A DNA stretch of 64,000 nt from an uncultured Actinomycetota bacterium (GTDB taxonomy: Bacteria; Actinomycetota; Actinomycetes; JAHEKZ01). Of this stretch, positions 59 to 1,832 are shown one piece after another. A model generated the notes under the pieces. It saw only the letters and a list, made by a program, of their open reading frames with translations. It searched no databases and had not been told where the DNA came from. The stretch spans positions 320,001 to 384,000 of the forward strand of contig CAVURN010000002.1 of assembly GCA_963743915.1 (NCBI GenBank), read 5' to 3'. How positions within the stretch are numbered: the stretch's first letter is position 1; each line of letters starts with the position of its first letter. The translations under genes and the position numbers were made by a program.

Positions 59-1756
<1,698 letters not shown>

Positions 1757-1832
1757 GGAGGGCTCCCGTGGTCGTTCCCGATGTTGTGCGGGCTCGGCCT
1801 TGAGCACCGATCCACGGGAGACCAGGCTATCA
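1757..1832 (-). promoter_or_regulatory. pyrG promoter and 5' UTR with SD-sequestering inverted repeat (putative CTP-sensitive TSS switch)
   Basis: Extended -10 TGaTAGCCT (1832-1824). Inverted repeat CTCCCGTGG (1820-1812) / CCACGGGAG (1771-1763); the second arm contains the SD. Confidence 0.6.

Follow-up and report, generated by a model that had tools for sequence, protein, structure and literature searches.

In Firmicutes pyrG, the gene of cytidine triphosphate (CTP) synthase, is a classical stuttering-controlled gene; in Bacillus subtilis its control combines a CTP-sensitive, reiterative addition of G with antitermination. CTP synthase is an essential enzyme. A different way of reading CTP is represented by pyrC and pyrD, for which a review (PMC6524683) describes two modes of initiation: at a high ratio of CTP to guanosine triphosphate (GTP) the transcript starts with CTP 6-7 nucleotides (nt) after the -10 element and gains two extra C's, which allow a hairpin to sequester the ribosome-binding site (RBS), while at a low ratio it starts with G. 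Here we compare these systems with the pyrG leader in a 64,000-nt stretch of DNA from an uncultured Actinomycetota bacterium (contig CAVURN010000002.1, positions 320,001 to 384,000), referred to below as the window. A sequence-only reading of the window had proposed a pyrC-type, CTP-sensing start-site switch at this gene. Every element that it named (the -10, CCCG, two complementary arms, GGGAG and TTG, all read on the minus strand) is present where that reading placed it.

The pyrG promoter carries an extended -10 element, TGATAGCCT, with its TG at 1832-1831 and the hexamer TAGCCT at 1829-1824. It has no usable -35 upstream, and a simple sigma-70 promoter scan, which demands a -35, returned no site there. 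Five nt beyond the hexamer lies CCCG, the three C's and the G occupying positions 6 to 9 after the -10 (C6, C7, C8 and G9). Further downstream, the Shine-Dalgarno sequence (SD) GGGAG at 1767-1763 is followed by the 6 nt CCCTCC (1762-1757) and the TTG start codon. The 5' end of the longer transcript, CCCGUGG, can pair with CCACGGG, whose GGG sits inside the SD. We call this helix P1; its 3' arm consists of CGA (1774-1772), CCAC (1771-1768) and GGG (1767-1765). ViennaRNA pairs CUCCCGUGG (1820-1812) with CCACGGGAG (1771-1763) in a perfect 9-bp helix that encloses a GCUC/GAGC hairpin.

The proposed likeness to pyrC holds to the nucleotide when the locus is set against the sequence of E. coli K-12 pyrC, which reads TATCCT-TTGTG-TCCGG...CCGGAG...ATG. 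Shared with pyrC of E. coli and Salmonella are the 5 nt and YCCG behind the -10 hexamer, a hairpin that grows with additional 5' C's and has a 3' arm reaching into the SD (GGAG in pyrC), a gene of the pyrimidine pathway and CTP as the presumed effector. Unlike pyrC, the window gene is pyrG, the polymerase is actinobacterial, no Rfam family matches, and P1 is a long-range helix that closes a 52-nt loop with variable hairpins instead of a small simple hairpin, and an RNA starting with G retains seven helix pairs. Sister lineages of the window, moreover, use the same promoter for a leaderless pyrG, and for the window regulation is a prediction. The kind of mechanism has precedent; its use for this gene and in this clade, the long-range helix and the tie to leaderless starts have none that we know of.

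We tentatively read the pyrG leader as a pyrC-type, CTP/GTP-sensitive start-site switch with translational output, and give this reading a little less than an even chance. A sigma-A-type promoter would then set, by the choice of the first base, how well the pyrG mRNA is translated. RNA polymerase would start either at C7 or C8 (1817-1816), favoured positions that need CTP, or at G9 (1815), which is placed less favourably but supplies a purine; with position favouring C and chemistry favouring G, the CTP/GTP ratio could tip the balance. At high CTP the extra C's of a C-start RNA would extend P1 (CCCGUGG/CCACGGG) into the GGG of the SD and pyrG would be translated less, whereas a G-start RNA would keep GUGG(A)UCG/CGA-CCAC only and leave GGGAG freer.

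Conservation carries this reading. We sampled 41 genomes from 22 families of the class, the window's genome among them; one (76% complete) gave no pyrG match and one was cut at a contig end, leaving 39 readable upstream regions. TAnnnT, exactly 5 nt and YCC(G/A)TG precede pyrG in all 39 (37/37 without the unpublished G025 and G033), which bears out the fixed spacing between -10 and CCCG, and TGn stands ahead of the hexamer in 36. These counts, like those for the phylum below, describe samples in which related genomes are not independent, and several of the arm and frame readings were made by eye from script output. Position counts were taken over 42 genomes, the 39 plus three Streptomyces-like ones from the phylum sample. 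T1, A2 and T6 of the hexamer are present in 42/42 and the TG in 39-40 of 42; after the hexamer, positions 7 and 8 are C and position 10 is T in every genome, G stands at position 9 in 41 (A in the remaining one), and position 6 is split between C (31) and T (11), while spacer positions 3-5 take all four bases.

Both arms proved to be conserved as well. Thirty-three of the 39 relatives have a leader, and each of these has, just ahead of the start codon, a CGGG(G)AG arm of the CCACGGGAG type. The seven core pairs of P1 (YCCGUGG/CCACGGG) are complete in 28, six of the seven form in four, and one leader, which has an extra G, pairs once its register is moved by 1 nt. In the remaining six relatives (L020, L027, L030, L037, L038 and L039) pyrG is leaderless, the GTG of the motif (ATG in L037) being in frame with the gene; YCC is kept in these six although there is no SD with which it could pair. 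The layout is also rare: TGnTAnnnT-N5-YCC(G/A) occurs once in the whole 2.9-Mb genome of the window, at pyrG. Without the TGn, TAnnnT-N5-YCC(G/A)TG has 13 further sites, none of which, judged by eye and with no family search, lies ahead of an evident pyrimidine gene, so the layout is not a regulon mark in this genome.

Table 1. Features of the pyrG locus in window coordinates.
Feature	Positions	Strand	Basis
Extended -10, TG-n-TAnnnT	1824..1832	minus	Sequence and conservation
Spacer GGTCT between -10 hexamer and C run	1819..1823	minus	Length fixed, sequence variable
CCCG, candidate starts C6/C7/C8 (1818-1816) and G9 (1815)	1815..1818	minus	Conservation; C. glutamicum transcription start
P1 5' arm, CCCGUGG-A-UCG	1808..1818	minus	Fold and conservation
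Variable interior: GCUC/GAGC hairpin flanked by CGG/CCG, then GCAC and GGGAAC (family-conserved)	1775..1807	minus	ViennaRNA fold
P1 3' arm, CGA-CCAC-GGGAG, including the SD	1763..1774	minus	Kept in leadered relatives
pyrG (CTP synthase), TTG start 1756-1754	59..1756	minus	Pfam domains, relatives
Speculative leaderless upstream reading frame, 5'-terminal GUG, 43 codons and TGA	1684..1815	minus	Not in the pyrG frame; extends across the pyrG SD and start

That GGGAG is an SD depends on where pyrG begins. The TTG at 1756-1754 is, as judged from the sequences of the gene and its relatives, the true start. With translation from TTG, the Pfam CTP_synth_N match (E 3.4e-123) begins at residue 8 and is followed by GATase (E 3.7e-32), and GGGAG-N6-7-TTG-GCC is kept among close relatives. 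The start-site G and the pyrG start lie 59, 58, 57 and 49 nt apart in these relatives; as the values differ by non-multiples of three, the region upstream of TTG is non-coding and GGGAG is the SD, in agreement with what had been proposed. The same distances rule out the in-frame GTG at 1807 as the pyrG start. A leaderless pyrG is not found in the window, where 59 nt separate the TTG from the GTG at 1815-1813, which is out of frame with it.

Published maps place the transcription start site (TSS) in relatives. In Corynebacterium glutamicum, pyrG (cg1606) shows the same motif, TATGCT-ggggt-tcc-g, and its +1, mapped by dRNA-seq, is the last g, that is, the position-9 G of TCCG, with 8 nt between -10 and TSS (Tables S1 and S3 of PMC3890552); the methods of that study called a TSS where read starts were at least 5-fold more numerous than at the preceding base. 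The Mycobacterium tuberculosis entry for Rv1699 gives a single upstream TSS at -81 with G as +1, filed as leaderless with the remark that it 'extends annotated ORF' (open reading frame; PMC4633059), and this fits a 5'-terminal GTG. The TSS tables list a single site each for M. smegmatis MSMEG_3746 (PMC6448022) and Streptomyces coelicolor SCO1776 (PMC4895711), at 61 nt and 125 nt, respectively, ahead of the annotated start. Twelve Streptomyces loci, including S. parvulus and S. tendae, have exactly 125 nt between G9 and ATG. The two leader lengths are compatible with a G9 start, the tables giving coordinates without sequence. Taken together, the mapped starts in relatives argue that the promoter is real and that G9 is the main start in laboratory cultures.

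The mapped starts also permit another explanation, namely that pyrG always starts at G9. The invariant YCC would then be part of a long (8-nt), G+C-rich stretch between -10 and +1, in a promoter tuned to GTP or growth rate. A promoter of this sort is rrnB P1 of E. coli, which is sensitive to initiating GTP and growth-rate signals. The P1 helix of the leader would consist of GUGG(A)UCG/CGA-CCAC alone, protecting the 5' end or tuning translation constitutively, and the CCC:GGG pairs would never be realised. Every published start is a G, single TSSs are listed for M. smegmatis and S. coelicolor, the S. coelicolor leader has the G9-to-ATG length of its congeners, and the leaderless variants set their start codon exactly at position 9. 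Still, YCC does not look like something that a start at this distance requires. As a proxy for leaderless promoters in the window's genome we took every TAnnnT from which n bases lead to an (A/G)TG that begins an ORF of 150 codons or more. With n at 6, 7 and 8 nt there were 229, 115 and 49 sites, and at other spacings 9-31, which indicates a start position preference of 7 over 8 over 9; C7 and C8 of pyrG are hence on favoured positions and the purine is on the less favoured position 9. YCC precedes the start at just 6 of the 49 sites with an 8-nt spacer, so it is not a general promoter requirement. As an aside, the 229, 115 and 49 candidates suggest several hundred leaderless genes in this genome.

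Would extra C's matter for translation? We modelled the energy needed to open the SD in RNAs starting at positions 6 to 9 for 38 loci, two unpublished ones included. The mean is 7.0, 5.3, 4.3 and 4.0 kcal/mol for C6, C7, C8 and G9 starts, with 7.9, 5.4, 4.1 and 3.9 kcal/mol for the window itself. The predicted trend has the right sign and would be modest. The modelled energy rises as the start moves upstream; the gain in the window, on which the earlier proposal of an SD occluded by C starts would depend, is small (1.5 kcal/mol, C7 against G9).

Several results weigh against the start-site switch. A C-start pyrG transcript is not on record in the published actinobacterial maps, which were not made at varied CTP and which show G starts only; the G start is mapped in relatives, and C starts and their dependence on the CTP/GTP ratio are predicted. 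The difference in SD opening energy between C7 and G9 starts reaches 2 kcal/mol or more in only 12 of the 38 loci and 1 kcal/mol or more in 15, is zero or negative in three and near zero in many more, a smallness in many loci that suits a fixed start at G9. In the window, the minimum-energy folds of the G-start and C8-start RNAs (for C7, by minimum energy only) pair the GAG of the SD with GCUC. The folding energy of the whole leader is not better than that of shuffled sequences (z -0.59 in one run, -0.34 to +0.42 in another); in DNA of 70% G+C, such values near zero mean that the single-sequence fold is no more than chance, and the signal lies in conservation. Finally, the covariation expected between the two arms did not appear within the class, where RNAalifold found compensatory changes at none of the seven pairs of P1, only one-sided C/U and A/G changes. 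The set comprised 25 short leaders; the unpublished G025 and G033 and all leaders longer than 85 nt were left out.

This lack of compensatory pairs within the class leaves room for sequence-specific recognition. A trans-acting factor might be at work, either a protein on the RNA helix or leader or a DNA regulator on the inverted repeats CCCGTGG and CCACGGG, with the geometry of the start being incidental. The arms are conserved in sequence without covarying within the class, and conserved flanks, GGA(C/U) and GCAC, accompany them. We nevertheless regard such a factor as improbable. The P1 loop, measured from position 6 to its partner G, ranges from 37 to 160 nt among the leadered relatives of the class and holds differing G+C-rich hairpins, a poor fit to a dimeric operator. 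The start site and the SD overlap with the element and, through constraints of their own, account for its invariance; the leaderless lineages keep the promoter half only, and there is neither a match to a known RNA family nor a candidate factor. The leader likewise lacks a conserved ligand-binding core of the riboswitch type, its interior varying in length and sequence; the RNAalifold consensus consists of P1 only, and MAFFT could not align the interior hairpins.

Pairs that do change on both sides come into sight outside the class. Our phylum sample comprised 61 genomes, of which one had no match and one a fragment only; 54 genomes from outside the class were readable. TAnnnT-N5-YCC(G/A) stands beside pyrG in 13 of these (13/51 without the unpublished G041, G057 and G087, none of which has the motif). 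The out-of-class leaders with the motif are short, and their 5'-terminal hairpin starts exactly at CCC: CCCGAGAGCC/GGCUCUCGGG-AG in L045, CCCGUAGG/CCUGCGGG-AG in L048, CCCGAGGG/CCCUCGGG-AG in L049, CCCGUC/GACGGG-AG in L051 and, by eye, CCC, an internal loop, a helix and GGG in L046 and L047. Compared with UGG/CCA in the window, pairs 5-7, which follow CCCG, change on both sides across classes and are thus compensatory, provided that the short hairpins are homologous to P1. If initiation were always at G9, hairpins that begin exactly at CCC would be left unexplained.

A deeper sample from one family of another class (31 genomes, 29 readable) sharpens this point. The motif is found in 28 of the 29, nine of them with an in-frame GTG at position 9. 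Fifteen loci (L223, L225, L229, L230, L234-L238, L241, L243-L245, L247 and L250) have CCCGUC-AUG, whose AUG shares the reading frame of pyrG, serves as its start and stands 3 nt behind the presumed start-site G; in 14 of these the next two codons are (G/A)A(C/U)GGG and, by eye, can pair with CCCGUC. Since the partner GGG in these 14 loci is not an RBS, the complementarity to CCC is no by-product of a G-rich SD, and a fixed start at G9 does not account for a non-SD GGG two codons into the ORF. Weighing the hairpins, this GGG and the rarity of YCC against the mapped starts, we consider initiation at G9 alone rather unlikely, though it is the main rival. In the CCCGUC-AUG loci the AUG falls into the hairpin loop, and the first codons, Met-Asp/Asn-Gly, seem to be kept for pairing with the promoter-proximal CCC.

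Some U-rich tracts after these 5' hairpins resemble terminators. In L045, L048 and L049, which belong to one family, the hairpin ends in CGGGAG and is followed by U7 and the start codon, an arrangement that resembles an SD-occluding stem and an intrinsic terminator alike. We dropped a terminator reading for the CCCGUC-AUG family, where the tract is coding sequence behind the in-frame AUG. In another family (L057, L058, L059 and L061, all but L059 unpublished), the -10 is followed by GACUUCCCCC ... GGGGGUCGUC, a C-rich/G-rich 5'-terminal hairpin without the YCCG geometry.

How specific the element is to pyrG was seen in a scan with the pattern TGNTACNNTGNNNNCCCGTGGNC over one genome per species, about 185,000 species in all. 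It returned at least 120 matches; 80 loci were fetched, and 75 of these have pyrG directly downstream on the same strand. The five without pyrG all come from other, non-actinobacterial phyla. Among the fetched loci, those with pyrG belong to Streptomyces, Kitasatospora, Actinacidiphila, Rugosimonospora, Actinomycetospora, Mycobacteriales, Gaiellaceae and Thermoleophilia. As the pattern was derived from the feature itself, the scan speaks to its specificity and not to its frequency. In genomes of Gaiellaceae and Thermoleophilia, too, the promoter puts an in-frame (G/A)TG at the start site of pyrG.

A wider version of the start-site switch would make the actinobacterial pyrG promoter, with YCC at 6-8 and a purine at 9, a phylum-wide, protein-free CTP sensor with three interchangeable read-outs. 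These would be the SD-covering helix of the window, the 5' hairpin that buries the start codon (CCCGUC-AUG-GACGGG), and leaderless translation that is lost with 1-3 extra C's. In the leaderless lineages and those with a start-codon hairpin, extra 5' C's would spoil leaderless initiation or complete the hairpin over the AUG. We hold this wider version to be possible, on balance doubtful. If the start-site switch itself is real, the element would represent a simple, polymerase-based sensor of an end product, kept in Microbacteriaceae-like genomes and as far as Streptomyces, Corynebacterium and mycobacteria, and would tie together two features typical of the phylum, promoters without a -35 and leaderless mRNAs. 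In some actinobacterial lineages the same promoter sets (G/A)TG at the start site, as in leaderless mRNAs; the window differs from these in that its 5' GUG is out of frame and pyrG has its own SD and TTG. Start-site switching that governs leaderless translation would be a mode of regulation for which we found no description. Likewise, full-text literature searches (subscription papers lay outside their scope) returned no description of an actinobacterial pyrG leader, of start-site control or of pyrG regulation in this phylum. CTP synthase figures as a drug target in M. tuberculosis in PMC4521081. Whatever its regulation, the motif shows where pyrG transcription begins in genomes without annotation and is an aid in assigning the gene's true start codon.

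E. coli pyrG itself offers a further comparison. Read from its sequence, it has TATACT-GCTTT-CCCG, thus the same gene with the same geometry of the start region; unlike the window, its leader has, by eye, no evident complementary arm that would cover the SD. A 2025 study reports a 'CCC' initially transcribed region for this gene, with a low slippage ratio of 10.1% (PMC12709180), so this geometry can give C starts. The sequence-only reading had mentioned neither this CCCG layout nor the leaderless pyrG genes on the same promoter.

A run of C's at a start site could also stutter. CTP-dependent reiterative transcription would mirror the G stuttering of B. subtilis pyrG: at high CTP, repeated addition of C would release or alter the transcript. 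The run comprises three C's in 31 of the 42 genomes, and pyrG is a gene under stuttering control in Firmicutes. Against this stand the 11 genomes with T at position 6, which are left with two C's, the E. coli pyrG, which slips little despite its CCC (10.1%, PMC12709180), and the want of a terminator to which stuttering could be coupled; we therefore regard it as very improbable. The window shares with B. subtilis pyrG the gene itself and, on the start-site switch that we favour, a polymerase that would sense CTP within the first transcribed bases and without a protein regulator. It differs in having CCCG instead of GGGC and no intrinsic terminator, and its output would be translational. Indeed, no terminator-like site was found on the minus strand within 1600-2100, and an Rfam cmscan of 1400-2300 with all 4227 families at E ≤ 10 gave two chance matches to unrelated families and nothing relevant, neither PyrC_leader nor PyrG_leader. 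The earlier statement that this is not the Firmicute attenuator stands on both counts.

The GUG at the 5' end of a G-start RNA opens the short upstream frame listed in Table 1. Its peptide is not conserved: five relatives have VDR*, and the frame relative to pyrG is not kept. A ribosome that initiated leaderless at this GUG could unfold P1. As a source of a conserved peptide or of an N-terminal extension the 5' GUG was rejected, since it is in frame 0 in only 7 of the 33 leadered relatives, two of them with stops, and the peptides differ. In the other five (L028, L009, L019, L025 and L026) the 5' GTG runs into the pyrG frame without a stop, and a PyrG with an N-terminal extension would be feasible. 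This resembles the extended-ORF annotation by Shell et al. in M. tuberculosis; the frame is not conserved across the class.

The 246-nt leader of C. glutamicum cg1606, given in Table S3 of PMC3890552, contains CCACGGAGG, a segment that by eye resembles the 3' arm, near +107, followed by a GTG and a short frame. About 125 nt further downstream comes the annotated pyrG ATG, preceded by a weak ribosome site. An ancestral start region may thus survive there as an upstream ORF.

Four metatranscriptome runs were compared with the window as assembled contigs, which cannot show 5' ends. Near-identical pieces from two runs of two studies reach 1797, and none covers 1810-2080. Downstream, the pyrG stop codon (59-61) overlaps, as GTGA, the GTG of the next minus-strand ORF (1-62), which runs off the window and is too short to be assigned to a family. 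On the upstream side, a glycosyltransferase-2 gene on the minus strand ends at 1916-1914.

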